From a virus: a stretch of 64,000 nt of DNA. A program made the translations under genes and the position numbers. The stretch's first letter is position 1. Every line of letters begins with the position of its first letter. A model generated the notes under the pieces. It did not search any database. It saw only the letters and a list, made by a program, of their open reading frames with translations, and was not told the origin of the DNA. This document shows positions 22,631 to 56,851 of this stretch, one piece after another. The stretch spans positions 1 through 64,000 of IMG/VR virus record IMGVR_UViG_3300045988_169928; one strand, given 5' to 3'.

Positions 22631-23542
22631 TTATTTCAATCCATGCTTAATCAAATACTTCCTAATCTTAGATAAAGTATCTTCTGTATATGGTACAGCA
22701 ATTAGATTATACCCATTGTTTTTAGCATAGTCTAACTTCATCTTATCGTGTTTTTGTTGTTTCTTAAAGGTAGCTTCTCCACCAAAGTAATCAATTGGTT
22801 GGTAGTGCTGAATCCCTTGATACTCAATTAAGATATTCTGATCTGGGATATAGAAATCATAGGATAAAAGCCTATCATCTTTTAGGTCATCAAATGTTTG
22901 CTGGGTTTCATAGTTAAGGTTAAGAGTATCTAGTATCTTATTAATAATAGTTTCACCTTTAGGACTATTACAATAAGGGCAACGGTATCCTTGAATGAAA
23001 TTGGTAGGTAGTACTTCATATACATTCCCACAGGTTTTATGCTTGACTTTTAACTTGGACCTATTGTTAACATAAGTATCTAAGAATACATATTCATCGC
23101 CCACTAAACTGTAAATTTCCTGTTTAAACTCTTTGTCTGTTTTCTTAGTGGTTCCAAAGCAATAAGGACACCGACTACCACTAATAAAATGATAGGGGGT
23201 TACCTCGTAAATGTTTCCACACTGGTTGTGTTTAACTCTTAACTTATTATTAGCACCAACATATGATTCTAAAAATGTATAATCACTACCCACTAGATCA
23301 AAGACCTCTTGCTTAAACTGGGTATTAGTCTTTTTAGCATTCCCACTACAATAAGGACAACAACTGCCTTTAATAAAATTACTTGGTGTAACCTCGTAGA
23401 CATTCCCACAAACGTTGTGTTTTACTCTTATCTTAGTCCTTTTATTAACATAAGTATCTAAAAATACATATTCATTACCTACTAGATCATAGACTTCTTG
23501 TTTAAATTCTTCATCTGTTTTTCTTTTTGTCATAATAACCAC
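22631..23542 (-). CDS. endonuclease with three N-terminal CxxC Zn-ribbon repeats and a C-terminal Vsr/DUF559-like PD-(D/E)xK domain
   Basis: Three repeats of about 65 aa (E/K)FKQEV(Y/F)DLVG.EY.FL..YV....K..VKH..CGN.YEV.P..FI.G..CPYC each end in CPYC. The C-terminus YDFYIPDQNILIEYQGIQHY matches the vDFxx...lvIEvDGxxH pattern of Vsr-like nucleases. Confidence 0.6.
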   Translation of the reverse strand: MVIMTKRKTDEEFKQEVYDLVGNEYVFLDTYVNKRTKIRVKHNVCGNVYEVTPSNFIKGSCCPYCSGNAKKTNTQFKQEVFDLVGSDYTFLESYVGANNKLRVKHNQCGNIYEVTPYHFISGSRCPYCFGTTKKTDKEFKQEIYSLVGDEYVFLDTYVNNRSKLKVKHKTCGNVYEVLPTNFIQGYRCPYCNSPKGETIINKILDTLNLNYETQQTFDDLKDDRLLSYDFYIPDQNILIEYQGIQHYQPIDYFGGEATFKKQQKHDKMKLDYAKNNGYNLIAVPYTEDTLSKIRKYLIKHGLK

Positions 23543-26676: not shown

Positions 26677-28542
26677 TTATAATTGTAATTCTCCGTTGTT
26701 ATCGTTAATGTTAAGGATATTTTGAAATTGGTCATTATATTTCAGGTCTGGGTTGTGGCTAATGACTAATACCGTCATATCGTCTTTACTGATCTTACTC
26801 AATAGTTCAACTACTTCATCAATACCCTGTTGATCTAGATTATCGAATAATTCATCAAGCACCACGAGATTAACCCCACCAATTTGGGTTTGCAGGTATT
26901 CCATAAAGGAGATATTGAGTGAGATACCTACACGGCGCTTCTCGCCCGAAGAAAGTTCTGAATACAGCTTCCTAGCTTTAGGAGTATTAACTAGCAAGTC
27001 AATCTTATTACTGATCTTGCCAGTTTTGGTGGTCGTCTGTGAGGTAATGCTTGCTTGGATTTCACCTCCTGTAAGAATATCTAACGTTTTTGCTAGATGG
27101 TCATTCAGAAAAGGAACTACTCGATTTAGCGCTTGGGTCTTAACCCCACGGTCTGAATAAATTTCTGATAACTTGTTGAGTTTTTCAATCTGACTCTTAA
27201 TCTGATTAACTTGTTCTTGTGCCTTAATAAGTTGGCTGTGATAGTCAGTTGATAGTTCTTTGGGCTTCTCAATTGTTTGTTTGTCCAACCTAATAAATAC
27301 ACTCTGTGCTTCTTCATACTGGCTAAGCCTTTGTTGTGCTTGTTGTAGGGCTAATGTTGCTTGCCTCATCTGTGCATTAATCTTTTCTTTTTGACTGTTA
27401 AGTTGATTTAATTTATTTAGACTTTCCTTAGCACTAGCCTGCTCCTGCTCAACAATAGCTTTTACTTGTTGGGACTTGTTTTCTGCTTGATTATATTCTT
27501 CCTTTTGGGATAGGTATTGTTGTTTCCCTTCTTGTAACTGTTTAGTGAGATTAGTAATCTCAACTTGTTTATGTTGGGCGTCTAGAACATTCCCACATAA
27601 ACTACAAATAGCATTGGGAGTATTCTGAACTTTCTTTAACTGGGCAAAGATTTCTTGTAATTGATTGTAGGTATGCTTTTGAACATTATACTTTCGATCA
27701 GCTAGGGAACGAGCCTGATTGTATTCATTTAGGTGGGGAGCAGTTGTGTTAATTCCTAACTTATCAATTTGATTATTAAGAGTTAGCAACGCCTGTTTGT
27801 TATGATCAACTAAATAAGTTTGACTAGCCACTTCCTGTTCCAAGGTAGCTTGATCAGTTTGAGATAAATAATCAAGGTACTTCTTCTTTTGACCCTCTAG
27901 AGTATCCTTATTTTGCTTCCACTGCTCCTCTAGGGCCTTTTGATAGTTGCCTAGGTCAATTATATGTTGTTGGCCTTCTTGGGCCTTAGAGAGGCCCTCT
28001 TGAGCTTCCTTAAGATCTTCCTTAACTAGGGCGTATGCTTTCCGATAAACTGCAATATTAGTTAGATCTTCCAACATTGCTTTCTTAGTCTTATCAGTTG
28101 CATTAATAAAGGTGTTTAGTTGTTCTGGGCTGAACACCAGAGAGTTAAGGAGGGTATCTTCTTTAAAGCCTAAAATATCAATGATCTTATCATTGGTTTC
28201 CTTATCCGTAGACAAGGTAATATCTTCTTCATTACAGGTTAGAATTACCTTATTCTTATACTCCTTGTCCTTACGGTAACGAGTAACTTCATAGTCTTTG
28301 CCATTAATTTCTAGACTAACCCGAGTAAAGGTACCACCCTTAGAACCATGTTTGATAACCTCATCAGCTTTGGTACCATCGGGACACTTACCATATAAAG
28401 CATAGAGTAAGGCAAAATAAATGGAACTCTTGCCGCTCCCGTTATCTGCGGATAACAAGGTTAAACCTTGGTAGTTGTCTAAGTTGACTTTTAAATGACT
28501 GTAAGAACGAAAGTTTTTCGCTTCAATTTCCTTAATCTTCAA
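26677..28542 (-). CDS. sbcC: SbcC/Rad50-like ATPase
   Basis: Walker A LLSADNGSGKSSIYFALLYALYGK, a long coiled-coil middle, a CSLCG zinc-hook-like motif, the ABC signature LSSGEKRRVGISL, and Walker B/D-loop LVVLDELFDNLD. Confidence 0.8.
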   Translation of the reverse strand: MKIKEIEAKNFRSYSHLKVNLDNYQGLTLLSADNGSGKSSIYFALLYALYGKCPDGTKADEVIKHGSKGGTFTRVSLEINGKDYEVTRYRKDKEYKNKVILTCNEEDITLSTDKETNDKIIDILGFKEDTLLNSLVFSPEQLNTFINATDKTKKAMLEDLTNIAVYRKAYALVKEDLKEAQEGLSKAQEGQQHIIDLGNYQKALEEQWKQNKDTLEGQKKKYLDYLSQTDQATLEQEVASQTYLVDHNKQALLTLNNQIDKLGINTTAPHLNEYNQARSLADRKYNVQKHTYNQLQEIFAQLKKVQNTPNAICSLCGNVLDAQHKQVEITNLTKQLQEGKQQYLSQKEEYNQAENKSQQVKAIVEQEQASAKESLNKLNQLNSQKEKINAQMRQATLALQQAQQRLSQYEEAQSVFIRLDKQTIEKPKELSTDYHSQLIKAQEQVNQIKSQIEKLNKLSEIYSDRGVKTQALNRVVPFLNDHLAKTLDILTGGEIQASITSQTTTKTGKISNKIDLLVNTPKARKLYSELSSGEKRRVGISLNISFMEYLQTQIGGVNLVVLDELFDNLDQQGIDEVVELLSKISKDDMTVLVISHNPDLKYNDQFQNILNINDNNGELQL

Positions 28543-31165: not shown

Positions 31166-31399
31166 TTAAAACTTTGCTACCTTAGCGTCTTTAATATCAA
31201 CATTAGGAATTTCTGGGTTAGATTGATTGCCTAAGTTAATTTCATTCTTTTCGTCATCAATGATCTTAGCATAGGCTTGATTCTGTGCCAGTAACTTGAT
31301 GTTCTCATCGGTCAACAGGGCAATTCGTTGTTGATACAACTTGATAATATCTTCGTATTCAATTGATACTCGTTGACTACGCTTAATCTTAGTTGGCAT
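31166..31399 (-). CDS. hypothetical protein (77 aa), last gene of the tail operon
   Basis: ORF. Confidence 0.5.
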   Translation of the reverse strand: MPTKIKRSQRVSIEYEDIIKLYQQRIALLTDENIKLLAQNQAYAKIIDDEKNEINLGNQSNPEIPNVDIKDAKVAKF

Positions 31400-31408
31400 A
31401 GTACCTCC

Positions 31409-31651
31409 TTATTTACTTGACATAAGTAATTGATTAATTAAGAGTTGGTGCTTGTCATTATTATACATCTCTGGAACATACAAAGTCTTGGTTTCTAGAT
31501 CATAGATTTTGTATTGCCCCGTTGATACTAAATGATCAATGCAATCTTGGGCTGTCCACCCGTCCTTATAATAAGGGCCATTCGCACACCAAGTGACTAG
31601 ATCATCAACTTGGGTAACGAAACCATATGGATTTACTACTTTATAGGCCAT
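31409..31651 (-). CDS. hypothetical protein (80 aa)
   Basis: ORF. Confidence 0.5.
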   Translation of the reverse strand: MAYKVVNPYGFVTQVDDLVTWCANGPYYKDGWTAQDCIDHLVSTGQYKIYDLETKTLYVPEMYNNDKHQLLINQLLMSSK

Positions 31652-31689: not shown

Positions 31690-34600
31690 TTACATATTAT
31701 TTGAACCAGTTACTTCTTGAACAGTCCCTGAATCAGAGGTGTGTCCATCATCAGTACCTTGTGGGAAAGACCAGAAGTTATTTCGTTTATCCCTATTACC
31801 AAAGATAATCACATAGCCAGCCCCAAAGGCAATCCCTGCTAAAGTATCACCGGAGCCGGAAAGCAATGCTGGATAGTTGCCTTGAACATACCCACCACCA
31901 TTTTTATTGAAATGGACTAAACCTATTCTTAAAATGTTATCTCCACGTTGCCCATTGGGACTAGACAATGCAAAACCATACTCATTTCCATCAGCAAGAG
32001 GAACTGCGAAATTTGATCCATAACTTGGACTTTGAACGTGCCAATACAAACTACTACCATATCCATGGGCATTTCCATAAGAATCAAACCAAATACCAGA
32101 CGCTGAATTTGATTCGTCCCAATTAACATTGTATTGAGGTTCAATAGTATGTTCTAGTAAAGTGCTATAAGGGAGGGAACCATAAAAGGACAGTGCTGGT
32201 TGGGTTGCCGGATTTCCAAAGTTCATCTCACCAGAAATACCAATCCCTGATTTACCATTAATTGAAATGTGCATTCCACCACGATAACTATCCAAAAATG
32301 AATAGCTGGAATTAATTTCCAAACCTTCACTGGTTAGTTGTGTTTGCCCTGCAATTCTAACACCCAAAAAGTTACCAGGATTACTAATATGACTTAATTG
32401 TAATGATCCCAAGGGGCTAAACTTAGTCTGATACTCATTCACATATTGAGTTGAACTAGTGGTCGTTTGTCCCACAAAGATACCCATACGAACACTATCT
32501 ACAGAAACAACATAGGCTTTTTCATTACTACTAATACCCTTACTAATTAAATTTAGTTGTAATAGATTATTGTTAATATACTGTTTATACTCATCTTTCC
32601 AAACAAAGTAAAAGTCATACGTATAATAACCGGGCATTAGTGGTTGAAATTCACCATCAATTTCAGTGTAAATACTATCATTACCGGGCTTGGCTACCCC
32701 TAGGTTAATTTGTGCGAAACTAGCATTGGTTCCACTCTCGTAGTTAATAGGAATCGAAACAACAACCTTATCACCAGCAGTTAGGTTGTCTGAACGTATA
32801 AGCCCCAATACCCCAAATTGGGAAGCGTCTAAGTGTGGATAAGGCATACCAAAGCGGCCACCTAGGGAAGTTAATGTATCTAATCTACCACCAATTAGCT
32901 TAGATGTAAATTGGCTAAGATCAACTGCAAATGGATCGGTGACTGAAAGAGGTACCCCGTAGTTATCCCCTTGATTACCTCCCGGATTTGCTGATTCAAC
33001 ATAAACACTATGCAAATAAACATCACTTGATGGAGTATAAGCGACAATACTGTAACCACTTTGTTGGTAGCTGACTGGATTTCCGAAGAAATAGTGTGTA
33101 TTTTGAAGAGCAGTATCTGAATCTGAAACTTCAATAGTAACTCTGGCCCCATTATGCAAACCACAATGCCAAATATAAGCCCCAAAAACATAGGTTACGT
33201 TTGCAGATAGTTTAATTGTTTTATTTTGGGTCGGATATAAATCCGAATTCGATCCAAAAGTAAACAAAGATCCAACTAATCTAGGGAACTCAACAGTTGA
33301 TAAAGTCCAGCTAAGAGTATCGGAACCACCCCAGCCATTCATACCATTGCTATTCATACTTTGATTTACAGAACTGGTAATTGAATCAGTAATATTATAG
33401 TTAATAGTATACTGATTCATACTTCCTTGTTTGTCTTTATCCCAAATTGGAATATAATTTCTAGTGTCTGATACCCCATTAACTGGGGCACTGAACCGGT
33501 GGTTCCAACCATAAGAATCAGCATAAATATCACTTGTCACACCCAAAGCCCGCATAGCGTTATTAGGGGCACTACCAGTACCATTAAAGTTAACTTGACC
33601 AGTTGTCCAAGCGTTATTTAAACTAAGGTAAGAAGAGTTAACACCTGCTATTGAATTCATCAAGTTCAAGTCTTGGGACATACCAAAAGTGGTTTCACCA
33701 ATACTTGATACATGATAACGATACTTATCGGCTTCACTTAGCTTTGAATGATAAGCAGTCCCAATATCTAATTCAGACCCTTCAATTACACCATCTGAAT
33801 AAGTCCCATTAGAAATTTGAGCGTTTTTCGAGGTAGAGGTCATTGCCCCATTGCCATCAATTTTAAAACCTGAACCAAACACAATCTCACTATTTTGACT
33901 CGTCAAGGTAAGTTTATCAACAGACACATTACCATGAATTACAGCGTCTTGAGCGATTAAGGTACCAGATGAGGTTATCCACGTCTTAGTATTCCCAGAT
34001 TTATCCTTTGTAGCAAACAGACCAGCGTCACCAGCTAGAGAATCATTACTACCATAAGTGCCTGCTGTGCTTTGGCTACCAACTGATGGCCCTTGAATGG
34101 TTAAGCCACCCTTGGAAATGACAACACTACCACCACCTTGGGGAGAAACTTCCATTCCATTTTGGTCAATGGTAAAGGAGCCGTTTGCCGCTACAATCGA
34201 ACCATTAACAGACAACGTACCACTTAAAGTAAGATCTTGTCCTGAAAAGTCAACCCCTGATATATTACCTGTTGAGATGGTAGAACCTGTAATAGTAAGA
34301 TTACCATTGGTATCAACATGGAACACATCTACTCCCGACTTCTTAATTGCAAAACCATTACTTGAGTTAACTATTACCTGTGTTTTGTCTGCTGTGGCAG
34401 TTAAACCATTGTCATTAAGGGTGACACCCTTATAAGTTACGTCCTTACGAACAGCATTGGAAGATACATCGGCAATATTAGATGAATAATTAGTAGACAA
34501 CTTGTCTACCGTTACCATAAAGTTAACCCGGTTTACCTCATCTGGAGAGAAACTATATCCAGCCCGGAAGTAAGCAGTCTTAGCCGGCGCATTAGCATAT

Positions 34601-37600
34601 GCAACCAGTCGAGTGTTATTGGTACTAGAAATATGACCATTTGATACATAAGCGGTTAAGGTGGAAACTTGACCGTCCCCCTTCGAGCTACTTACCAACG
34701 TTTCATTGCTAGACCCTTGATAAGCAGGAGTGTGCCCGACAAAGGCAAAGGAAACCCGTCCCTGTAAATCAGCAGGTGCATAGGTAGAAGGCAATCCATA
34801 CGACTGTAACAAGGTACATAGATCTTGTGACGCTGTTTGGAAGTCGGTAGAATCTTGAATAAAGCTATCTCGGGTTGCAATTGCTACTACTAGATCTTGA
34901 CTAGAAATTGATTTTAAGTAGTTTACTAAAGCATTAGCATTATCAACCGTAGCAAACGTGTCCCAATATTGTGTATCTACCCTTCGTCCAGAATATGGAT
35001 CAAAAGTGGCAACAGTAGTGCCTCGCCCAGAAACAGCTAACTTAGATTGTAATAAACCAGACGTTTGAATATAAAGGTCTTGATAATTAGTTGTCGCGGC
35101 TTGAGAAACAATACTAATTTTTAGCATTCGTTCATTGTAGTAAACCCCATTCAAACTTTGTGGGTTAGTAAATTGACTATTATTACCATCTAAAGTGGAA
35201 TTTCCTTGATGGTTATTAGTACCATTAGAAATAAAATTGTGATCACTATCTGCAAACTCAACACTAGCACTAGTAGTTATTCCCGGATAAGCAGGATAAT
35301 CGTAGTGAGTTAGGAATACCCGTTGGCCCTCACTAATTGGATACCAAGGTGTATAGTATTTATTTTGTAACCAACTAGCATAGATACTGTCAGAAGGGTT
35401 AGGCGACCAAGGGTGGGCAACGGTACCTTCCTCGACCATTGGTAATCGTACATAAGCATCACAACTTTCACTCTTAGCATGGTAGATGATATGTGCTTTG
35501 TTTGCACTATTAACAGTTCCGCTGACAGCATATCTTGTCCAGTTGCTAGTTAAGGTGACTACTTTTGTAAAATCACCTTCACGACCAATCATAAATGTGC
35601 CAGACCCTTTCATTTCGACTGAGAACGTTTCTGAATCACCAATCGCAAATGGTTCTGTACTATTAGCATAGATAGCATTCCATCTACCATAGAATCCACC
35701 ACTGCTTGTGGTGCTTGTGATATGTGCTGTTGCTATGCCATCACTACCGGTATTCCAATCAACGGTTGGATTGTTTATATCTGTATTTGCAAAAGATTTT
35801 GAATTAAGCCATAGGTTTAGTCCGCCTCTATTGACAGAACTACCTTTTTGCAAAGTAGTTAAGTCCCAATAGTTACTACCCTGTGCTACCGTAATACTAT
35901 CGTCCCTAGTGTAATCTTTAATTGCATTCCCAGCAACTAACTTTACACTCCTAAAGGAAACGGTACCCTTAGTTTCACTATTGTAAACTTGACCCAATAA
36001 AGCAGTTAAAACAGACCCTTTATCCCACGTACCAGAAACAGTACACGTATAAGTTACCCAATCAGTAGTTAGTAATAACTTAGTCTCACTATCTGTACTG
36101 GTAAAGGTGCTAGTTTGGTTTGGAACACTAGGTGAAGTGGTAACTGATACTTGGGTGGTTTTATTCTGTAATTGTGAATATGCGTTCCCCCAAGCAGGGT
36201 ACATATGAACATAATCGCCGCTAACGGTACTTTTAGCTTGAACTTGGAATGTATAAGTAGTATCAGTTGAAGTATAGTCAAAAGGATAATCCCCATTGTA
36301 AGTGCTAGTCGAATCTAGAACAGGATTTGAGTAGTAAGTAACATCATCAACCATTAACAGGTTTTTATCACCATTGATATTGGCCTGTAAATTACTATCT
36401 AATGACTGAATAGTCAATTGTTGTAGTGTCCAATCGCTTTGAGTGAATGCACCGCTTGGTCTAGCAGTTGTACAGAAATAAGTTGACCCAGATGTTGTCC
36501 AAATATCCCCTAAATCATAGGGAGTAGTTGGGGTAGAGGTAAAGTTACGTTTCTTAGATGAATCAAACATCTTTACCCATGTGTACTTGGTAGGGTCATC
36601 TGAACTGGTTAGATTGTAATCAGTATAAGTACCAAAATAATTATAAGAATTATTACCAGGTGTATCTGTAAATCCTACACTACCATCTGCTGAATTAGCA
36701 TAAGCAATATGGAAATAAGTAGTTTGACCATCTGCACCTGGCTTACCTGGAACCCCATCGGCACCCTTAATTAAACTCCATGTATAATCAGTAGCTGTAC
36801 TTGACTCATTGCTACTTTCCTTGTTGTAAGCTATCCCGATATAGCTCATTCCCGTTGGTGAGTCGCTCATGCTACTCCCGCTACTATCAGTGGCATACTT
36901 AATCCACGTATAGTAAGTTTTGCCATCTACACCCTTAGCTCCTGGAATACCTTGGTCACCCTGATCACCTTTGGGACCTTGTACTAATTGCCAAGAGTAA
37001 AGTGCTGGATTAGTGCTATCAGTTTGTATGAAGTCCGTATAACTACCAATGTATTTTCTAGAACCAGGAGTATCAAGAGAAAAGTTTGTTTTACCATCAC
37101 TGCTATCAGCATAGGCAATATGGAGGTATGGTGTCTTACCATCAGCACCTGGCTTACCCGGTACCCCATCTTTACCATCTGCACCATCTGCACCCTTGAT
37201 TAATGACCAAGCGTATTTAGTAGGATCAGTGCTATCTTCAGATGTAAAGTCAACATACATACCAATATAAGTTCGATTGCTATCTGATACTGTAAAGTCA
37301 GTTTTACCGTCTAAAGAGTTAGCATAAGCAATATGAGTGTAACTTGACTTACCATCTGCACCAGCAGGTCCTTGAATACCTTGTTCACCTTTTGGGCCTT
37401 GAAGACCTTGTAAACCCTGTTCACCAGGGTCACCCTTTAGTCTAGACCATGTGTACTTAGTATGATCAGAGGAATCTTCTTCAGTAAAGTCAGTATAAGT
37501 ACCAACATATAAAGCATTAGCAAAGTAAGTTAAGTTAAAGCCATTAGTACCATCACTACTATTAGCATAGGCAAAGTGTACATAACTTGTTTTACCATCA

Positions 37601-39954
37601 GCACCTGGTTTACCCGGCACCCCATCTTTACCATCTGTACCATCAGTACCTTTCATTAATGACCACGTGTACTTAGTAGGGTCAGTGCTATCTTCAGATG
37701 TAAAGTCAACTAGCAAACCAATATAAGAAGCACCACTAAAGCTATCTACACTAAAATTACTCTTACCATCAGCACTAGTTGCATAAGCAATGTGGGTATA
37801 ACTAGTTTTACCGTCTGTACCAGGAATACCTTGTGGACCCTGGGTAGGAACAACTACCCATGTACCATTTTGATACTGTTTTAGTGTACCATCTGTATCT
37901 GTCCAAAAGTCACCATCATTAGGGTCAGCTGGGGCAGAACTAGCAACATAATTATTGTTAACATTATTATCAATAAACTGTACCCAATTCTTGCTAGAAA
38001 TATCCCATTTGTAAACATTGTACTTAGTCTTACCATCACTAGTAGAAGCAACATTTTGATACCATAAATCACCATCATTGTATTGAGTACCACTAGGTTC
38101 GGTGGCTTGATAGTAGTTATGAGGTAACTTATCTGCGGTTTCTTGGGCTTTTTCAGCGGCTGTCTTTGCGTCTTGGTAGCCCTTGAGGTTAGCTTCCTGC
38201 CAGACACTATTGGTATACTGCATAATATTGCTAGTACCATCAGAGTTAGTTTGAAGCCAAAGGTCGCCCTCTTTAACGTTAGCTCGATCTGGTTCTTGTG
38301 ACCCTTGATAGATAGAGTTAGCCTTATTAGAGGTTTCACCAACCTTCTGGTTTAACTGGGAAGTAAACTTGCTCCGATATGTTTCTAACAAGCCCATGAA
38401 GTCAGTAATTGCTTCATCAATCTTTACCCGATCAACTTTAACATTACCCTCGGTTTCAAAAATCCAATCGGTTAAGTTTTTTAAGGAGTTTTCATTCGTT
38501 TTGAGTTCGCTAACGTCAATTCCAACCGTAGTCCCATAGTCCATTAAGGCTTGGCACTGTGAATACAAAGCATTGAGTTGCTGTTGTAATTGGGCCTTAT
38601 CATGGGGGGTTAAAATGTCGGGGTCTGAACTAGCGTCCCCACTAATTTTAACCCCAGTTGAACCTGATGTTCCATTATTAACCTGAATCGAACCCGCTGT
38701 AATGGTTCCCATATCTGGACTAATATCAGACAGTTTAATAATGTTCATCTTATCAGCCGTGACTGTCTTATCCTTTAGCTTAGTACCATCAATGGTACTA
38801 TCTTCAATGTTATCCCCAGAAAAGTTCTTAACTGTAATCTTGCTAAAGTCCATGACCCCGCCGTCAAGGAACATACTAAGAGCGGATAGGCTATTTGAGT
38901 TAGAATCAAATAACTTAACATCATTGATATAAACCCCGTCCGTCCGAACTTCAAGATTAGTGGCTTGCTCCTTGGAATCAACTGTTGTGGAACTCTTTAA
39001 AGAGATAGTATCATCTTTGGTTTTCCCTAGGTCGAAAGTAACAGTCGTTGGGGCACTATCAAAATCAGCAGTATAGGTCTGATCTTCTTCACTAGCCCGA
39101 GGTAGGCCTGCCTTTTTCTTTTGGTGGCCGATATACTTGTTGAGTTGCATACCGTTCTTATCCATATGTAAGACGGTAGAAACTCCAGTAAAGGAGGTGT
39201 TAGTAAAGACTAACTCAAAATCCCCGGACTTATTAACATAAAACCGGGTAATGTGATTATCTGCGTCTAAGCCATTTGGGTTATCCTCATGGACAAGTAA
39301 CCAATCCCCGGCTTTTTCCCGTTGTGGGTCATGGATCTTTCCATCAATGGTTGAATAAGGAACCAAGGATAAGTCAGTATAAAGTTCTGAATAGTCTTGG
39401 GAAGTATCATCATCAATGACCATAAAGGAATAACCATTCAAACTTTCAAATAGCCGACCGGAACCCGATCGATAACTAATTTGACCAGAATGGTGAACGT
39501 GTTGTTCTGCTAGACCTGTTTCAGCAATGTAACCATCTTTATCATCACCACTATCAAATAGGGTTGGTGAAATAGCTTCGTATTGTTCCCCATTAGGAGC
39601 ATATACCCCAATTACAATTGGTGACGTCTTGTGACCATTAAGATAAGCGATGGCTACAGTATCACCAATCTGAACTGGGCGGTAGTGTCCATAAGTACGA
39701 CCTTCACTATCTTGGCCAAAGTAATCAAGTGGAATCCGAGCGCTCCCAGTCCCATTACCACTACCATCAGCAACAATACTAGATACCCCGCTAGTCAACT
39801 TAAAGTCTAGGGTTCCTTGGTGATAGTAAACCTTAGTAACTTTACCCAAGACAATTAAACTAGCGTCCTCACTGGAACCAATATTTACCTTAGATAAACT
39901 AGCTTGGTGTGTCGTGGGGTCAAGATTAAAGATATTATTACTCATATACACCAC
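31690..39954 (-). CDS. giant tail spike/fiber protein (2754 aa): gpV/gp5-like OB-fold N-terminus, six collagen-like (G-X-Y)n tracts each followed by a beta-module of about 50 aa, and a long C-terminal beta-rich region
   Basis: N-terminal RIPLDYFGQDSEGRTYGHYRPVQIGDTVAIAYLNGHKTSPIVIGVYAPNG fits the phage baseplate-spike (gpV/VgrG) OB-fold signature. G-X-Y runs such as GDPGEQGLQGLQGPKGEQGIQGPAGADGKSSY occur six times. Each run is followed by YTHIAYA.S.DGK..F....YIG.Y.DFT.EDS.DPTKYTWS. Confidence 0.8.
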   Translation of the reverse strand: MVYMSNNIFNLDPTTHQASLSKVNIGSSEDASLIVLGKVTKVYYHQGTLDFKLTSGVSSIVADGSGNGTGSARIPLDYFGQDSEGRTYGHYRPVQIGDTVAIAYLNGHKTSPIVIGVYAPNGEQYEAISPTLFDSGDDKDGYIAETGLAEQHVHHSGQISYRSGSGRLFESLNGYSFMVIDDDTSQDYSELYTDLSLVPYSTIDGKIHDPQREKAGDWLLVHEDNPNGLDADNHITRFYVNKSGDFELVFTNTSFTGVSTVLHMDKNGMQLNKYIGHQKKKAGLPRASEEDQTYTADFDSAPTTVTFDLGKTKDDTISLKSSTTVDSKEQATNLEVRTDGVYINDVKLFDSNSNSLSALSMFLDGGVMDFSKITVKNFSGDNIEDSTIDGTKLKDKTVTADKMNIIKLSDISPDMGTITAGSIQVNNGTSGSTGVKISGDASSDPDILTPHDKAQLQQQLNALYSQCQALMDYGTTVGIDVSELKTNENSLKNLTDWIFETEGNVKVDRVKIDEAITDFMGLLETYRSKFTSQLNQKVGETSNKANSIYQGSQEPDRANVKEGDLWLQTNSDGTSNIMQYTNSVWQEANLKGYQDAKTAAEKAQETADKLPHNYYQATEPSGTQYNDGDLWYQNVASTSDGKTKYNVYKWDISSKNWVQFIDNNVNNNYVASSAPADPNDGDFWTDTDGTLKQYQNGTWVVVPTQGPQGIPGTDGKTSYTHIAYATSADGKSNFSVDSFSGASYIGLLVDFTSEDSTDPTKYTWSLMKGTDGTDGKDGVPGKPGADGKTSYVHFAYANSSDGTNGFNLTYFANALYVGTYTDFTEEDSSDHTKYTWSRLKGDPGEQGLQGLQGPKGEQGIQGPAGADGKSSYTHIAYANSLDGKTDFTVSDSNRTYIGMYVDFTSEDSTDPTKYAWSLIKGADGADGKDGVPGKPGADGKTPYLHIAYADSSDGKTNFSLDTPGSRKYIGSYTDFIQTDSTNPALYSWQLVQGPKGDQGDQGIPGAKGVDGKTYYTWIKYATDSSGSSMSDSPTGMSYIGIAYNKESSNESSTATDYTWSLIKGADGVPGKPGADGQTTYFHIAYANSADGSVGFTDTPGNNSYNYFGTYTDYNLTSSDDPTKYTWVKMFDSSKKRNFTSTPTTPYDLGDIWTTSGSTYFCTTARPSGAFTQSDWTLQQLTIQSLDSNLQANINGDKNLLMVDDVTYYSNPVLDSTSTYNGDYPFDYTSTDTTYTFQVQAKSTVSGDYVHMYPAWGNAYSQLQNKTTQVSVTTSPSVPNQTSTFTSTDSETKLLLTTDWVTYTCTVSGTWDKGSVLTALLGQVYNSETKGTVSFRSVKLVAGNAIKDYTRDDSITVAQGSNYWDLTTLQKGSSVNRGGLNLWLNSKSFANTDINNPTVDWNTGSDGIATAHITSTTSSGGFYGRWNAIYANSTEPFAIGDSETFSVEMKGSGTFMIGREGDFTKVVTLTSNWTRYAVSGTVNSANKAHIIYHAKSESCDAYVRLPMVEEGTVAHPWSPNPSDSIYASWLQNKYYTPWYPISEGQRVFLTHYDYPAYPGITTSASVEFADSDHNFISNGTNNHQGNSTLDGNNSQFTNPQSLNGVYYNERMLKISIVSQAATTNYQDLYIQTSGLLQSKLAVSGRGTTVATFDPYSGRRVDTQYWDTFATVDNANALVNYLKSISSQDLVVAIATRDSFIQDSTDFQTASQDLCTLLQSYGLPSTYAPADLQGRVSFAFVGHTPAYQGSSNETLVSSSKGDGQVSTLTAYVSNGHISSTNNTRLVAYANAPAKTAYFRAGYSFSPDEVNRVNFMVTVDKLSTNYSSNIADVSSNAVRKDVTYKGVTLNDNGLTATADKTQVIVNSSNGFAIKKSGVDVFHVDTNGNLTITGSTISTGNISGVDFSGQDLTLSGTLSVNGSIVAANGSFTIDQNGMEVSPQGGGSVVISKGGLTIQGPSVGSQSTAGTYGSNDSLAGDAGLFATKDKSGNTKTWITSSGTLIAQDAVIHGNVSVDKLTLTSQNSEIVFGSGFKIDGNGAMTSTSKNAQISNGTYSDGVIEGSELDIGTAYHSKLSEADKYRYHVSSIGETTFGMSQDLNLMNSIAGVNSSYLSLNNAWTTGQVNFNGTGSAPNNAMRALGVTSDIYADSYGWNHRFSAPVNGVSDTRNYIPIWDKDKQGSMNQYTINYNITDSITSSVNQSMNSNGMNGWGGSDTLSWTLSTVEFPRLVGSLFTFGSNSDLYPTQNKTIKLSANVTYVFGAYIWHCGLHNGARVTIEVSDSDTALQNTHYFFGNPVSYQQSGYSIVAYTPSSDVYLHSVYVESANPGGNQGDNYGVPLSVTDPFAVDLSQFTSKLIGGRLDTLTSLGGRFGMPYPHLDASQFGVLGLIRSDNLTAGDKVVVSIPINYESGTNASFAQINLGVAKPGNDSIYTEIDGEFQPLMPGYYTYDFYFVWKDEYKQYINNNLLQLNLISKGISSNEKAYVVSVDSVRMGIFVGQTTTSSTQYVNEYQTKFSPLGSLQLSHISNPGNFLGVRIAGQTQLTSEGLEINSSYSFLDSYRGGMHISINGKSGIGISGEMNFGNPATQPALSFYGSLPYSTLLEHTIEPQYNVNWDESNSASGIWFDSYGNAHGYGSSLYWHVQSPSYGSNFAVPLADGNEYGFALSSPNGQRGDNILRIGLVHFNKNGGGYVQGNYPALLSGSGDTLAGIAFGAGYVIIFGNRDKRNNFWSFPQGTDDGHTSDSGTVQEVTGSNNM
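36550..37850. repeat. six tandem coding repeats (collagen-like tract plus beta-module, about 210-230 bp each) inside the giant spike/fiber gene
   Basis: Protein residues about 703-1135. The repeats are also visible at DNA level, for example ggtaccccatctttaccatctg recurring near 37160 and 37620. Confidence 0.7.
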
Positions 39955-39960
39955 CCCTCC

Positions 39961-40500
39961 TTAAAATTTAAGCATATACTTAACTACCTTAGAATTGGTA
40001 TTAGTATAAGTTTCTAACATTCGATTCTCATAAAAGAGTAAGGAACCTGTACTTGATACAGCATTGGCCAAAAGAGCATGACTAGCTAAGTCTTTTTGAA
40101 AATCAACAACTCCAATTTGGGTGTACTTAAAGGTATCTAATTCTGATACTGATAGGGTTCCTACTAAACATACATAACGTGCGTCTTGAGTTGGGATCCC
40201 CGTACTAGGTAAAACCGTAGTCGGGTCTACAATTGACCACGCCTTTGACTTATAAGTAATGGTTGTGTCAGTATCGGTAGATGACGTAGAAGCAGTATTT
40301 GTGTCATAACACAGATAAAGATGGTCAACCTTTAAAAAGGCTTTGGGGTCTGTTAAAGAAGTAGTTGTTTCGTTCTCTGCTTCCAGGTTATTAGAATCTG
40401 GCCAGTCAGCTTCCTTAGCAAACTCAAAGTAGAGATGACTATGATTATTAATAAAATTGATTGCTTGTTGAATATGTCCAACTTGTGTTGTAATTGCCAT
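39961..40500 (-). CDS. hypothetical tail/baseplate-associated protein (179 aa)
   Basis: ORF between two fiber genes. Confidence 0.5.
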   Translation of the reverse strand: MAITTQVGHIQQAINFINNHSHLYFEFAKEADWPDSNNLEAENETTTSLTDPKAFLKVDHLYLCYDTNTASTSSTDTDTTITYKSKAWSIVDPTTVLPSTGIPTQDARYVCLVGTLSVSELDTFKYTQIGVVDFQKDLASHALLANAVSSTGSLLFYENRMLETYTNTNSKVVKYMLKF

Positions 40501-40511
40501 ATTTTCCTCAC

Positions 40512-42383
40512 TTAATTTGTTTCCATTGTGAATGTTTCAGCACTATTAGCTAATGTAATTATATCACTTGGGGCGTTAAATAAATACCCTAGGTAATTAA
40601 CTGATAGGATAGTGATATTAGCTACTGTTGGCCAAACCTGAAACATGAAGTTACCCCCATCTGATAGATATGGGGCTATACTTGATAGATTAACCTTAAA
40701 GATAGTGTAATCAGAATGAACTTCATATTCAATAATTGGCTTGACCCAAAGATGGAGATTGTAGTCATATAATTCTAAACGAACATCTTGGGTTAAATCA
40801 ATGTTGGCTTGGTTTTGCAAAACAAGTTCTAATCGTTGGGTATTAGAATTAGCTAAGTTATCTAGGATAAACTGCTTAGCAGTCTGTTCACTAGATTTAA
40901 TTGCTTGCTTGTATACGGTTAAGTAACCTAAAAGATCAACCCCACCTAACAGGCTAGTTTGTGTTTGATCAACGGTAAACGAACTAGCTTGACTATCAAT
41001 TGAACTAATCAAAGTTGGTTGGGTAGTAATTTGACTACCTAACTGTTGTTTTAGGTTTTGTGAGGTAATACCCAACTCTGCTTGTTGCTTAGTTTGTAAC
41101 CAACTATTATAGATACTATTAGAAGGATTAGGTGACCAAGGAGTAGCTATACTACCCTTTTCAATTTTGATGTGTTTAATCTTTAGCAAAGTTGATTTAT
41201 TGGCATAAATAACCCAGTTAACCCAGCCACTATTCCTATTAACAGTGAAAGTATTTGATATTCTTTGCCAATCGCTAGTTAAATTAACTTGACCTAAATT
41301 ACCGTTATCACTACCTTCATAATGAAAATTGCTTCCTTGAATAAAACCATTCCCACATACATCAGCGGATAATGTATATACTTGTCCTACCTCTGGTATA
41401 AATGTACTGGCCCAAGCACCCCAATAGGGACCAAGGCCACTAATTGGTGCATTATTAGCATATTGGACATAGTCTGTTTCATCATCATACTTCTGTATAG
41501 TCTGTGTTCCGTTGTTGTTATGGAAAGGAAACTCAAATTTTGCTGTTCCTGTTAATAAGTTAGTACCACCACCAGTCGTATCAATGACTGTATCATAATC
41601 TTCTTTGTTACTCCCAATATATACTACTGGGTTATAACTAGAGTTACTGGTTGCATACTGTTTTCCCGCATTTAGGTTATCCTTGTTATAGTTAAAAGGA
41701 TCACCTACATAGGTTGCTAAGTCGAGCTTACTATTTAGATAGGCGGAATTAGTCTGGGTAAAGTTAGCATAGTCTGTATCTGAACTTTCAATAATTTGAG
41801 TGGTTGGTAAACTCAAGTCTAAAATCGGTGCTGTATTATTAATTACATTGACTAAACTTGTTACTACCCAATATACACCGGCCGGTCGAAATAGATTGAT
41901 AATCTCATTTACAATCTCACTGTAAGGGCCTTCAATTTGAACATCAATTACTGCATAACGATAGTAGGGATCAGTAAAAAATTTATGTGTATTATAATGA
42001 CTAGCATTCCAAACAAACATATCTCGCCAAGGTTCATAAATGTAGATATGATCTTGGTTAATCTTTAAGAAATCAGTTAAGGCTTTAGTTAAGGCCGGAA
42101 TGGTGTTCCGTTCATGCAAAACATGATTAACCAAAGCGGTTCGATAATCATCATCGCTTCGGTTATCCCGGTGTAACCCTAACCAACGACCCCAGTAATC
42201 AAGCCATCTACCATTAGCGGTATCAAGATATGTTTCTAGTTTAGAACTGTATAGGTCTAATTCTGTTTTATCTAACTCACTCTGTAAACTACTAATAAAA
42301 GCGTCATTAGCTGAACCATCGTCCTTAGTAATACCTTGGACGTTAAACCCCCAAAAGGGTTGTAAATTATCTTTAATTGCCAT
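40512..42383 (-). CDS. baseplate/fiber protein with a DUF2313 (Mu gp48 / P2 gpI-like) N-terminus and a C-terminal receptor-binding region
   Basis: N-terminal LDYWGRWLGL...DDDYRTALV fits the DUF2313 LD.WE..LGL pattern. The central motif EKGSIATPWSPNPSNSIYNSWLQTK is shared with the giant fiber. Confidence 0.6.
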   Translation of the reverse strand: MAIKDNLQPFWGFNVQGITKDDGSANDAFISSLQSELDKTELDLYSSKLETYLDTANGRWLDYWGRWLGLHRDNRSDDDYRTALVNHVLHERNTIPALTKALTDFLKINQDHIYIYEPWRDMFVWNASHYNTHKFFTDPYYRYAVIDVQIEGPYSEIVNEIINLFRPAGVYWVVTSLVNVINNTAPILDLSLPTTQIIESSDTDYANFTQTNSAYLNSKLDLATYVGDPFNYNKDNLNAGKQYATSNSSYNPVVYIGSNKEDYDTVIDTTGGGTNLLTGTAKFEFPFHNNNGTQTIQKYDDETDYVQYANNAPISGLGPYWGAWASTFIPEVGQVYTLSADVCGNGFIQGSNFHYEGSDNGNLGQVNLTSDWQRISNTFTVNRNSGWVNWVIYANKSTLLKIKHIKIEKGSIATPWSPNPSNSIYNSWLQTKQQAELGITSQNLKQQLGSQITTQPTLISSIDSQASSFTVDQTQTSLLGGVDLLGYLTVYKQAIKSSEQTAKQFILDNLANSNTQRLELVLQNQANIDLTQDVRLELYDYNLHLWVKPIIEYEVHSDYTIFKVNLSSIAPYLSDGGNFMFQVWPTVANITILSVNYLGYLFNAPSDIITLANSAETFTMETN

Positions 42384-45914: not shown

Positions 45915-48900
45915 TTATGATACTTTCTTGCTTGGGTCGTATTGCAAGTAACAACTTAATTTACGCACTCTAGGCGTCCTGAAATTGTTAGGACTTTGCA
46001 AGTATAACCTTACCTTGAATTGTGTTGCTAAGTGGTTTTGATCAGTTGCAGTCGGTACTACCGCCTCATATACATAACGGGTAAAGTAGTTTGTCTGTGC
46101 CTTGGTACTGGTTGGTGTAGAACTGGTAGCATTAGTCTTAGTTGTAGTGCTTGAAGCTCCACCACCACTAGGAAAGTTATACCAAGTTGTCCCACCATCA
46201 ACTGAATACATTGGGTTGACTTGTGGTAAGGCAGTACCAACTTCTGGAATGTAGGCGTCATACTGGAGCTTTACATAATTGAAGGCGGCGTCACCGCTTT
46301 CATCGACATTGATACTTTCATAACTAGCGGCCTTTCCAGTTAATACAGCCACTAATGATAAATCTTCTGTGGTTAAAACAGGTGCAATATAGTCATCAGA
46401 ATTAAAGTCGGCCTTTAGTTGCATTGCAAAGGTATTCTTAAAGGAGATTACCTCGCCATCTACCGTTTGAATGCTATCATCGCTAGTAACCGCTGGAACC
46501 CCATCTGTACTTGTAGCCGAAGGCATAGCCTGATTATTGTTATTTACAGGCAACGCTAACCATGGACAGTTAGCTAAAGCAGTCGATACACTAGCCCCTG
46601 TGTAAGTTGAAGAATCACCTTGCAATACCCGAATATACCAATTCATAGACGTGTTTTGGTAGGTTAAGTAAGAGGTTAGAGCGGCCAACCGATCTAAGGC
46701 AGTTAGCCGGTTCTTATTAGTAGAACTCTTACCATCAAGATTATCCCCTAAGTCCTTTATCCATGTTTCACTAGACTTAACCCAGTCAGCAATCACAATC
46801 GGGTCAAAGAGAATCTCGCCATTCTGTTGGTACTTACATACGTTAACCGCAAACTTAATTGAGCTTGTTCCATCAGCAGTCCAAGTTTGGGCGTTGTTAG
46901 AAATAAACATTACCCCATTTGAGTTTGGTGCCGAGGTTAAAGTATCACCAACAGATACGGTAACTGTATTGGAAATCTGGACATTCTTACCAGTAGCATT
47001 CGGGTCTTTGTTACTGATTGCATTCGGGTTAGTGTTGTAAACCGTAGCACTGGTTCCGGCGCTAACAACCTTTTGACCCTTGGTTGCCGAGAACACTTCA
47101 TAAGCATTACTATCAGAAATCAAGACGATCGCATAACCCCGATTACCAGTCAAAGTAACTGAATCGGTAAATGTTACTCGAGTACCTAAACTCCCATCAT
47201 CGGAAACTTGAATCTGATCTGGCGTTAATGTAACACTAGTCCGAACCACGTTGTTAGGATAACCATCATCTGACAATTCCCGAATTTGAACAATTAAATC
47301 AGAAGTGTGAGCAGTGTCACTCTTATCAGCCTTCTTATAGAAGTAGAGGTCAACAGAGGATAATTGCCGAGTTTCACCAATGGTAAATGATTGGGCCAAC
47401 GGGTCAACAATATCAACTGAATATACCCGCTTTTCAATGATATTTTCAGTTGTCTTTAAAGTACCTTGGGCAATGTAGTTGGTGCTTGCCTGATCGTTGG
47501 CATTATCAATAATCTTAACCGTCCGAGTACCACAACGAATTACCCCACCCGGAATCGTAAAGGTACCACGGATTTCACCATTAGCATTAGTCTTAAAGGC
47601 TCCATTAGTACCTTTATAATCATCACTAGCAGGCGTTGGGTCAAGAACCGCTACCCCATCAATGGTGATCTTATATCCATCGGAAAAGGCCGGTAAGTTT
47701 TGAGCCACAAATGAAATGGTTCGTTGCCGAATATACTCAATGGCACTTTCAGTAGTGGTAGACCCACCATCGGTTAGCATATACCCGGTCTGTTGACCTT
47801 CGTTTATCCAATTAATACCTTGTAAGTTAGAGTATTGGTACTGTTGGCTAATAGCGTCAGCATAAGATTGTGTTTTACCCGTCCGTCCGACAGCTAAATC
47901 CCCATTAGTATGGTACCACCACTTATTAAGGCTAACCTTACCAGCATCAGTTTCCCGAGTAACAGTAGTAGAATCTGTATCAATCCAATTATCACTAGCT
48001 GGGTCAATTGTTAAAGTCCCATTAGCACTAAAGATATTAAATTCGTTAACATTGGTTGTCCCAGTTGAAATTGGCTGATTAATTGCCACTTCTTCATGAT
48101 ATGGTGGGGTAACTAATGACCCCTTAATTGCTACTTGTGAACTGTCAAAGTTAACATTAGGAGTTAAGTCAGCCATTGCTTGGCTAGGTAATAGGATTTC
48201 ACCATTTTCAAAGTCATAAGCAACCGTAGAATTTTCATCGTCCCGGTTATTAATCGTGTTAAAGCTATCAGAAAGAACATCTTTCATCAAGCTAGGATCT
48301 TCCGACCGAGCAACCGTTTGGTTCATGTTAGCAATTGCTAAATTGTATTCGGTGTTAGTTAGCCGGCGTCCCCATTGTTGTAGTGTTTCAAAGGTTTGTC
48401 GAGTTACAGTCTGCATAGTAAAGACTGCATTGTGGGAGTTAGGATAGATTAATACATAACCTAATTCCAAGGTATACGGGTCATTAACCACAGGTGGAGT
48501 AACTGACGCAAGTGGGGCCGGTTGCCCTTCGATAACCTTGAATGGATTTGAGTTATCCATTGTAATCCTAATCATATCAATTCGTGCTTCAAAGTACACA
48601 TAAGATACAATGATAGTCGAACCAGCTACCGGCTTAGCCCCATTTGAATCATCAATATCAATATACGTAGTTCCACCATCTGAAACCACAGTATAATCAG
48701 TACCTTGAACTGCATTAGTTGAATAGTCATAAACTACTGTATAGGACTGACCTTGATTAGGAACATTAGCACCAGCCAAAGGCTTACCAGAAAGATCTTG
48801 ACCCCAGTGAATAACGTTGTTAACGTAGGTAAAATCTACACCTGCTGTATATTGGTTGGTGTTATCATAAACCTGACGAATATAGGTAACATTATCCGGG

Positions 48901-56849: not shown

Positions 56850-56851
56850 TC

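Follow-up and report, generated by a model that had tools for sequence, protein, structure and literature searches.

Collagen-like repeat units in a probable one-chain central tail spike of a Hopescreekvirus-like Limosilactobacillus fermentum phage

Overview

The DNA analyzed here, a stretch of 64,000 nucleotides that we call the window, comes from a relative of Lactobacillus phage LfeInf (Hopescreekvirus). The most likely product of one minus-strand gene in this window is a central tail spike extended within one chain into a very long trimeric adhesion fibre; the phage would be a Hopescreekvirus-like (Herelleviridae) myovirus infecting Limosilactobacillus fermentum. The gene is a real and tidy case of modular tail-protein evolution in which every building block is already known. 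Its features, all on the minus strand, are as follows.

31690..39945 (-): coding sequence of the spike-fibre protein, 2751 aa from ATG 39945, with the stop codon at 31692-31690
39956..39962 (-): Shine-Dalgarno sequence AAGGAGG, spaced 10 nt from the ATG and sharing bases with the stop codon of BW3TFN, the gene upstream
38920..39915 (-): central-spike N-terminal module, OB-fold then predicted beta-prism, aa ~14-345 (profile match to 9euf_B)
37849..38919 (-): stalk, aa 346-702 (from sequence; helical/coiled-coil nature predicted)
36565..37848 (-): six tandem units, each a collagen-like tract plus a beta-module of ~50 aa, aa 703-1130 (Pfam, sequence)
35845..36564 (-): conserved neck after the last unit, aa 1131-1370 (comparison with relatives)
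35386..35844 (-): swappable CBM-like cassette, aa 1371-1523 (sequence shared with tail-fibre-like proteins)
34732..35025 (-): ILEI/PANDER (POMGnT1-stem-like) domain, aa 1644-1741 (Pfam PF15711)
33769..34434 (-): Gly/Ser/Thr-rich repetitive fibre segment, aa ~1841-2062 (common to more distant spike-fibre relatives)
31693..33687 (-): distal ~665 aa, candidate receptor-binding tip, aa 2090-2754 (family-specific)

The open reading frame at 31690..39954 reported in the initial annotation is present and comprises 2754 codons when counted from GTG 39954 as the maximal frame. The true start, however, is probably ATG 39945, giving a product of 2751 rather than 2754 aa, because the AAGGAGG at 39962-39956 is spaced 10 nt from this ATG and only 1 nt from the GTG, and because the public gene call for an identical protein (P0024, 2751 aa) begins MSNNIF. 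An assembly artefact or a frameshift-joined frame was ruled out by the recovery of the exact window protein on 14 contigs, up to 109 kb long and from at least two sequencing runs; the split form of the locus described below is equally reproducible.

Genomic context

LfeInf (NC_029058) is the closest sequenced phage, with ~89% nucleotide identity over 82% of the gene and identical synteny. Genes for a tube initiator, a gp25-like sheath initiator, Baseplate_J, a TmpF-like protein, BW3TFN, and a DUF4815 tripod homologue surround the spike-fibre gene. The latter stands at the end of the baseplate module, unlike the spike gene of A511 and of Kayvirus phages such as 812, and in the window it is the tripod homologue that sits at the "spike" position of the Kayvirus/A511 order, a placement that counts against the central-spike reading. 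RBP genes of the Kayvirus type are absent after the baseplate cluster, and the tail sheath gene, annotated in LfeInf, lies outside the window. PHROG searches of two downstream ORFs (80 and 77 aa) and of LfeInf gp081 returned no useful function, and we found no literature on LfeInf tail proteins.

The N-terminal spike module

An N-terminus with the OB-fold of contractile-system central spikes had been proposed, and homology to a solved structure now bears this out. A profile built from 19 homologues matched residues 3-375 of 9euf_B, the central spike (ORF58/gp112) of Staphylococcus phage 812, with E=3e-26; the domain names used here are taken from the description of that spike (PMC13433997). 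The homology covers aa ~14-390 of the window protein, that is, the OB-fold, the beta-prism, and the first part of the coiled-coil, into which the profile match runs on. The OB-fold assignment comes from this homologue and not from Pfam, as Phage_base_V (PF04717) scored 15.7-21.7 bits, under its cutoff of 23.8. The 812 spike was found by the family profile only, and phmmer with the whole protein against PDB sequences gave no match.

An AlphaFold monomer model of the N-terminal part consisted mostly of strands at a mean pLDDT of 53.7, and Foldseek ranked 9euf_B first (E=3e-13), followed by the PVC, R2 pyocin, and AFP spikes, with TM-scores of about 0.2-0.26 for this low-confidence monomer. The second AlphaFold model, discussed with the C-terminal region, was of similarly low confidence (mean pLDDT 52.5), probably owing to shallow alignments and to a native state that is an intertwined trimer, and therefore fold matches to either model are taken as supportive only. 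By tblastn, the N-domain occurred in 658 phage records, mostly with Herelleviridae hosts, including Kayvirus, Bacillus phages (25-29% identity), Enterococcus phages, and A511, the last at a locus annotated as GP-PDE.

That annotation raises the question of an enzymatic spike, a candidate that we rejected: no GDPD domain was present among Pfam matches at E<=0.1, and the match to the 812 protein (848 aa) was confined to its N-terminal 375 residues. The glycerophosphodiester phosphodiesterase label carried by PHROG 2204 and by RefSeq LfeInf gp083 is, as judged from these alignments, inherited from the shared spike N-domain, and the annotation "glycerophosphoryl diester phosphodiesterase" should not be trusted for these proteins.

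The spike module might instead be re-used to attach a peripheral baseplate fibre to wedge or arm proteins while another protein plugs the hub. Such an arrangement would fit the location of the gene, which comes after those for the TmpF-like protein and BW3TFN ("tail fibre network") and occupies the position of the Kayvirus tripod gene, and it would fit the existence of the fibre part as a separate protein in split-type relatives. We nevertheless regard it as improbable, in that ~370 residues of the N-domain are homologous to a spike whose structure was resolved within the hub channel, and no other ORF in the window matched the spike N-domain HMM, which leaves the window with no second spike candidate. 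The collagen and coiled-coil parts likewise suit the threefold axis of a spike.

Stalk and collagen-like array

Between the spike module and the array lies a stalk composed of a short segment of I/L-x-D-type repeats, a Leu/Gln-rich, putatively helical (coiled-coil-like) segment, and three W-repeats of the form (E/D)GD(L/F)W...Y...W at aa 562, 627, and 680. It is followed by six tandem units, each a collagen-like tract joined to a beta-module, as had been noted from the sequence; the interval 36550-37850 given for them was also correct. The G-X-Y tracts begin at aa 706, 769, 841, 921, 993, and 1064 and contain 4, 7, 10, 7, 7, and 5 triplets, respectively, and every tract then runs into the pattern Y-x-H/W-I/F-x-Y-A ... 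Y-I/V/F-G ... Y-x-W. Pfam detected both components above their cutoffs: Collagen (PF01391) with 35.7 bits against 27.2, and BppU-like_C (PF21470) with 44 bits against 27, the best stretch being in unit 6. A weak profile match to Tuc2009 BppU (5e7t_B, E=0.078) was also obtained. By profile, the beta-module is of the BppU-like_C, or "3-beta domain", type.

The repeat array had been described as a ready substrate for slipped recombination, which is too strong. The units are 39-71% identical to one another in amino-acid sequence and 63-86% identical at the DNA level, with a longest exact repeat of 23 nt, and Tandem Repeats Finder reported only short periodicities of 9-27 nt in the gene. Because the units have diverged to this extent and share no longer exact repeat, a high-frequency slippage (contingency) locus was rejected. 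The changes in unit number among relatives, as read from sequence, are evolutionary recombination events and not evidence for high-frequency slippage.

The C-terminal region

C-terminal of the array, the composition is S 12.5%, T 9.9%, G 9.8%, and N 8.0%, which agrees with the Thr/Ser/Asn-rich character first attributed to this region. The neck after the last unit is conserved among relatives, some of which hold an extra CBM-like cassette in a slot that is empty in the window. Next comes the cassette of ~150 aa, bordered by NRGGxNL and EEGxxAHPWSPxPxDS, which is common to ~65 tail-fibre-like proteins at 45-91% identity (64-74% for most); the few carriers with named hosts are from Limosilactobacillus and, in one case, Fructilactobacillus. 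Of 20 relatives, 9 have nothing in the cassette slot, and the rest hold several different cassettes there. Comparison of these proteins shows exchange of CBM-like cassettes with Limosilactobacillus tail-fibre-like proteins. Pfam gave no match on the cassette, and Foldseek returned weak matches to CBM30/22/29/4/6 (E 0.009-0.08) from a low-confidence model; the occurrence of the cassette in tail-fibre-like proteins is no more than suggestive of a carbohydrate-binding module.

A discrete lectin-like domain had been suggested, at low confidence, around residues 1640-1745. This segment corresponds to the Pfam ILEI/PANDER domain (PF15711), which scored 34.7-40 bits against a cutoff of 27 and covered 87 of 90 profile positions, in a stretch modelled at a pLDDT of 64-83. 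Its fold weakly matched the carbohydrate-binding stem of POMGnT1 (5ggj; probability 1.0, 22% identity, E~9e-3) and FAM3C ILEI (5lc4), with both matches at 20-23% identity and E ~1e-2; at E<=0.001, Foldseek of the second model gave no match. The repetitive fibre segment that follows is matched at 36-55% identity by the more distant relatives P0113-P0121.

The distal 665 aa are specific to the family. An exhaustive HMMER search of 1.84 billion representative proteins gave five matches, namely three long proteins that span the region (two already known as family members), a 157-aa fragment, and one weak match, and so no relatives outside the family were found in that set. The sole Pfam signal in this region was a sub-threshold CBM_4_9 (E=0.15). 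Pfam searches on ten separate segments added nothing to ILEI and the sub-threshold OB signal, and the weak BppU match noted above was all that a profile of the C-terminal 1600 aa drew from the PDB.

Fused and split forms of the locus

What is one gene in the window is four in LfeInf, gp083, gp082, gp081, and gp080, encoding proteins of 863, 373, 57, and 2027 aa. The LfeInf spike has one unit followed by an extra terminal domain, and its fibre has an N-terminus of its own, MIVASNNITLSNVNDG, and cassettes that differ from those of the window protein. Among 22 clusters of related proteins, 14 begin as a separate fibre protein and seven are fused; unit counts in the fused clusters are 1, 2, 2, 2, 4, 6, and 6, which confirms the repeat-number variation among relatives anticipated earlier. 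Further fused relatives were found at 41-48% N-terminal identity. Two fusion junctions map within G-X-Y coding tracts, and a single in-frame deletion of about 2.2-2.4 kb separates each of P0041 and P0032 from LfeInf. Outside the myophages, unit 4 of the window is 82% identical over 336 nt to the Tal gene (the gene that follows Dit) of phages J-1/PL-1, and the Tal of Lactobacillus phage J-1 (J1_17) carries five units of the window type. Taken together, these comparisons show that recombination inside G-X-Y coding tracts alters unit number and fuses or separates spike and fibre, and that at least one collagen/3-beta unit is shared with siphophage Tal genes.

Might the single chain be a recent deletion product, cleaved after assembly or poorly functional, with the split four-gene design as the working one? 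The majority of split forms among the close clusters and the simple deletions that separate P0041 and P0032 from LfeInf would be expected in that case. Fusion, however, is found in seven close clusters with four different unit numbers as well as in the relatives at 41-48% N-terminal identity; the exact protein recurs on the 14 contigs mentioned above; no protease or autocleavage domain was detected by Pfam; and Bacillus phage Vp4 has an accepted fused homologue. We consider this explanation very improbable.

There remains the question of what the array is for. It may be a linker without a tuned length function, a tolerated remnant of recombination among modular tail genes. The occurrence of 1 to 6 units in otherwise collinear relatives, the divergence of the units, and the presence of one of them in an unrelated siphophage Tal are all in keeping with such a linker, and we give this reading serious weight at somewhat under an even chance, as none of our observations speaks directly against it. 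It is compatible with a central spike-fibre and differs solely on whether length matters.

Comparison with known systems

The window protein resembles gp112 of phage 812 (Kayvirus), which is ORF58, the "GP-PDE", of phage K (9euf chain B; PMC13433997), not only in the homologous OB-fold, beta-prism, and start of the coiled-coil but also in general design: both are long trimeric spikes protruding from the baseplate with cell-wall-directed modules at the far end, as predicted for the window protein. Whereas 812 gp112, 848 aa long, terminates in a TNF-like knob plus a phosphodiesterase "petal", the window protein lacks a GDPD domain and carries instead six collagen/3-beta units and ~1600 aa of CBM, ILEI, and fibre modules.

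A fused spike of 2033 aa, Gp111, has been described in Vp4, a Herelleviridae phage of the Bacillus cereus group, with an R2-pyocin-like N-terminus, a coiled-coil, and several CBM folds in one chain; in its close relative Deep-Blue, these functions are divided over Gp188 (679 aa) and Gp186 (1463 aa) (PMC11406892). This dichotomy is the same as in the window clade. The host genus and C-terminal modules differ, and, as far as the part of the published description available to us goes, neither a collagen-like or 3-beta array nor ILEI is among the features given there. A spike with an internal collagen array was initially called unusual, which is only partly right, given that spike-fibre fusion recurs in seven of the 22 clusters, in the further relatives at 41-48% N-terminal identity, and in Vp4 Gp111.

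Tal extensions of siphophages offer a precedent for the array. In Streptococcus thermophilus phages such as TP-778L, 9851, SW13, and DT1, variable-length collagen-like linkers are paired with 3-beta domains of ~60 aa and interspersed with CBMs, including a POMGnT1-stem-like CBM_1 (PMC9437275). There, the extension is attached to a gp27-like Tal of a non-contractile tail, in contrast to the gp5/gpV-type OB-fold and beta-prism spike of a contractile tail in the window.

Proposed mechanism

On the homology with 812 gp112, the N-terminal OB-fold and beta-prism would form a trimer lodged in the hub channel of the baseplate. The helical part, the three W-repeats, and the six collagen/3-beta units may then form a segmented, flexible stalk, in which the 40 G-X-Y triplets alone would extend about 34 nm at 0.286 nm per residue; trimerisation by tracts as short as 4-10 triplets is our assumption. 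This stalk would hold the CBM-like cassette, the ILEI/POMGnT1-stem-like domain, and the distal region ahead of the baseplate, where these modules may bind cell-wall polysaccharide or teichoic acid and set host range. By the model for 812, binding and baseplate rearrangement would be followed by departure of the spike from the channel, so that the tube passes and DNA exits.

A further possibility is that in these Hopescreekvirus-like phages the contractile tail relies mainly, perhaps solely, on the spike-fibre for receptor binding, and that between 1 and 6 units are selected to match the thickness of the host surface polysaccharide. That range would amount to an estimated length difference of roughly 30-45 nm. 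We hold this view to be doubtful.

Biological meaning

These data suggest that L. fermentum myoviruses, which are known as fermentation contaminants and members of the gut virome, adhere via the central spike and not via side fibres alone. The breakpoints in collagen-coding tracts support an earlier proposal for S. thermophilus phages, in which collagen-like repeats serve as recombination joints for host-range modules, and carry it over from the Tal proteins of siphophages to the spike of a myophage. Host-range determinants are to be sought in the swappable cassette and in the orphan distal 665 aa. Within one genus, the locus exists as one gene or four, with 1 to 6 collagen-jointed spacers, and thus constitutes a natural experiment; if length matching is true, the fused and split alleles would be a ready system for the path from central-fibre binding to baseplate triggering and spike release.

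Gene model and baseplate setting

The minus-strand ORF 31690..39954, initially read as a single 2754-aa protein, is present in the window and translates without a break. Its first in-frame start is a GTG, separated from an AAGGAGG motif by only 1 nt; a second start, ATG 39945, lies three codons further on, with AAGGAGG 10 nt before it. Because of this spacing, and because public annotation starts the identical protein (P0024, 2751 aa) at MSNNIF, the spike-fibre protein is most likely 2751 aa long; residue numbers below follow the 2754-aa version. The same protein was read on 14 contigs, the longest reaching 109 kb, that stem from two or more sequencing runs; this rules out an assembly accident as the origin of the long ORF.

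The closest sequenced genome is that of Limosilactobacillus fermentum phage LfeInf (Lactobacillus phage; Herelleviridae, Hopescreekvirus), and no closer phage was found in the phage collection searched. The spike-fibre gene shares approximately 89% nucleotide identity with LfeInf over 82% of its length, and the flanking gene order is the same on both sides. As judged by homology, the surrounding genes are a contractile-tail baseplate cluster; LfeInf has a tail sheath gene annotated at another place in its genome.

Genes of the baseplate cluster and its downstream edge
Tail-associated lysin, 1084 aa
50441-50785, minus strand: thioredoxin/glutaredoxin-like protein, 114 aa, all Pfam matches sub-threshold
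45915-50396, minus strand: DUF4815 protein, 1493 aa, homologue of phage 812 ORF65 (E=1e-145)
Tail tube initiator
gp25-like sheath initiator
Baseplate_J protein
40512-42383, minus strand: TmpF-like protein, upstream of BW3TFN
BW3TFN ('baseplate wedge 3 tail fibre network component'), preceding the spike-fibre gene
31409-31651, minus strand: small ORF, 80 aa, directly downstream of the spike-fibre gene
31166-31399, minus strand: small ORF, 77 aa, downstream of the spike-fibre gene

The two small ORFs, which are followed by the replicative helicase gene, are kept in every relative inspected, fused or split; a family search with them detected no family, and they may be fibre assembly factors. The length of the TmpF-like protein ranges between 453 and 635 aa in close relatives (contigs L004, L005, L006, L009 and L010), so its gene is a second modular baseplate gene in the cluster. 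In the tail module, the thioredoxin-like gene has the tail-associated lysin on one side and, on the other, the DUF4815 protein, which is taken, from its homology, to be the tripod protein.

Compared with Kayvirus, the gene order is swapped: the tripod homologue is flanked by the tail lysin and tube initiator genes, in the place of the weld and spike genes of phage 812, whereas the spike homologue ends the cluster, where Kayvirus encodes the tripod. Both the terminal position of the gene and the occupation of the Kayvirus 'spike' slot by the tripod homologue would suit a peripheral location of the spike-fibre protein, the main rival reading, which we regard as improbable; a seat in the central hub is preferred.

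Elsewhere in the window, an SbcC-like ATPase gene (26677-28542, minus strand) encodes 621 aa. Its counterpart in LfeInf (L001 21745-24738) has 997 aa and is annotated with an excised internal mat_peptide, and that of relative L005 (13971-14202) has 996 aa with Hom_end/LAGLIDADG matches, so that the length difference looks like a presence/absence polymorphism of an intein. The replication module also holds a 303-aa HNH/homing-endonuclease-like ORF (22631-23542, minus strand). At 55875-58401, three plus-strand genes of virion or unknown function interrupt the otherwise minus-strand structural region, an inversion also seen in LfeInf.

N-terminal central-spike domain

A direct search of PDB sequences with the whole spike-fibre protein gave no match. 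Searching with a profile built from 19 homologues of the N-terminal region gave 9euf chain B, with E=3e-26 (profile positions 14-392, chain residues 3-375). This chain, titled 'GP-PDE domain-containing protein / ORF58' of phage 812, is the central spike gp112, a trimer plugging the hub channel (PMC13433997). The match spans the OB domain and beta-prism, runs into the beginning of the coiled-coil, and stops before the knob and petal. It bears out the spike-type OB N-terminus that had been proposed, with the Pfam Phage_base_V model falling just below threshold, and by this comparison the N-terminus is a central-spike domain. Structure prediction gave a low-confidence AlphaFold monomer of aa 1-350 (pLDDT 53.7), for which Foldseek ranked 9euf_B first (E=3e-13) and PVC, R2 pyocin and AFP spikes lower; owing to the poor model quality, this ranking is consistent with the spike identity and was not counted as independent evidence.

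A tblastn search with the N-domain retrieved 658 phage records (Staphylococcus 299, Bacillus 194, Enterococcus 69, Listeria 55 and Lactobacillus 26), including an A511 locus annotated as GP-PDE; among the ORFs of the 64-kb window, no second one matched the N-domain HMM. Pfam detected no GDPD domain in the spike-fibre protein, consistent with a match to gp112 that does not reach the knob and petal. The label 'glycerophosphoryl diester phosphodiesterase' (PHROG 2204; RefSeq LfeInf gp083) was therefore rejected for the window protein, and appears to be inherited via the shared N-domain. The GP-PDE annotation of LfeInf gp083 (L001 9010-11601) is probably a transfer error in this clade, the GDPD scan being that of the window protein.

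Collagen-like array

The six tandem units of the initial annotation were confirmed at aa 706-1130 by inspection and by Pfam Collagen and BppU-like_C, both above gathering scores. Their tracts hold 4, 7, 10, 7, 7 and 5 G-X-Y triplets, each followed by a module of approximately 50 aa that shows the motifs Y-x-H/W-I/F-x-Y-A, Y-I/V/F-G-x-Y and Y-x-W, and the units share 39-71% protein identity. In Tal of Streptococcus thermophilus siphophages, C-terminal extensions pair variable-length collagen-like linkers with three-stranded '3-beta domains' of about 60 aa (Goulet et al., PMC9437275). Lactobacillus phage J-1 Tal (gene J1_17, directly after Dit) has five units of the window's type; unit 4 of the window protein is 82% identical over 336 nt to phages J-1, PL-1, iLp84 and PLE3, and the units of the window protein also hit numerous PHROG families whose annotation is tail fibre or host-specificity protein. 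By these comparisons, the array in itself is a known kind of module and not new.

Fused and split alleles

The window's single gene corresponds to four genes in LfeInf, an arrangement found again on independent contigs.

LfeInf genes at the corresponding locus
gp083, L001 9010-11601: 863 aa; spike N-domain and stalk with one unit, plus an additional domain at the C-terminus
gp082: 373 aa
gp081, L001 12738-12911: 57 aa, acidic; between gp082 and the fibre gene
gp080: 2027 aa; N-terminus MIVASNNITLSNVNDG

ORFs of the gp081 type occur in split-type genomes only, and the label 'helicase subunit of the DNA excision repair complex' (PHROG 7926) is implausible. The closest N-terminal homologues of the spike-fibre protein have 863-869 aa. 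Among 22 close protein clusters recovered by the C-terminal query, the fibre starts separately in 14, is fused to the spike in seven and is truncated in one (P0039). Unit number varies, as had been suspected, from one (P0041) through two (P0032, P0033, P0045) and four (P0040) to six (P0025 and the window), so natural relatives do without five of the six units; synteny is identical for all fused genes inspected. More distant relatives (41-48% N-terminal identity) are also fused, and six of eight have 2-6 units.

The DNA of P0041 and P0032 is collinear with LfeInf save for single in-frame gaps of about 2.2-2.4 kb, whose breakpoints fall within G-X-Y coding tracts. At the P0041 junction (...PTQGPQGVPG/IPGAPGKDGQTTYFH...), the first tract of gp083 is joined to the last tract of gp080. 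Of the earlier suggestion that the array is a substrate for slipped recombination, the variation in unit number stands, and alignments indicate that the array is a recombination joint over evolutionary time; it is not a demonstrated slippage hotspot, since units within the gene are only 63-86% identical in DNA and no exact repeat exceeds 23 nt.

C-terminal region

Ser, Thr, Gly and Asn are abundant in the approximately 1620 aa after the array. The lectin-like segment tentatively placed at about 1640-1745 matches Pfam ILEI/PANDER above threshold at aa 1644-1741, a domain with presumptive sugar binding. A model of aa 1360-1765 was of low confidence overall (pLDDT 52.5; 64-83 in the ILEI stretch). 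Foldseek matched its ILEI part to the POMGnT1 stem (probability 1.0, 22% identity) and FAM3C ILEI (E 1e-2 to 1e-1), and its cassette part to several beta-sandwich CBMs, with E of only 1e-2 to 1e-1. CBMs are interspersed in S. thermophilus Tal extensions, and CBM_1 resembles the carbohydrate-binding POMGnT1 stem domain (PMC9437275).

Internal segments of about 65 further proteins share 45-91% identity, mostly 64-74%, with the cassette (aa 1371-1523); the named ones comprise tail-fibre or gp58-like proteins from Limosilactobacillus fermentum and L. mucosae, and one tail spike protein from Fructilactobacillus sanfranciscensis. Relatives differ at the cassette slot, which lies between NRGGxNL and EEGxxAHPWSPxPxDS: in 9 of 20 it is empty, and in the remainder it holds several unrelated cassettes; a second slot upstream behaves likewise. 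Comparison shows array and cassettes to be modular and to have been exchanged. For the distal 665 aa, a search of 1.84 billion representative proteins gave only five matches. Three of these are long and span the region, two being known family members; the others are a 157-aa fragment and a weak match.

Proposed mechanism and precedents

The spike-fibre protein would trimerise and sit in the hub, from which a segmented fibre would project, the collagen alone spanning approximately 34 nm. The CBM-type and ILEI modules may bind cell-wall glycans and determine host range, and the spike would exit the channel after baseplate rearrangement, by analogy with the proposal for phage 812.

The closest functional precedent lies in Herelleviridae of the Bacillus cereus group: Vp4 Gp111 (2033 aa) combines an R2-pyocin-like spike, a coiled-coil and several CBMs, functions that Deep-Blue splits between Gp188 and Gp186 (PMC11406892). 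In the literature searched, neither a collagen/3-beta array carried by the central spike of a myovirus nor a set of fused and split alleles within one genus, with breakpoints mapped, was found described. Structurally, the nearest homologue is phage 812 gp112, and the extension is best matched by the Tal extensions of siphophages that infect lactic acid bacteria. The window protein is a combination of known pieces, the notable point being that the array is carried by a myovirus spike instead of a siphovirus Tal.
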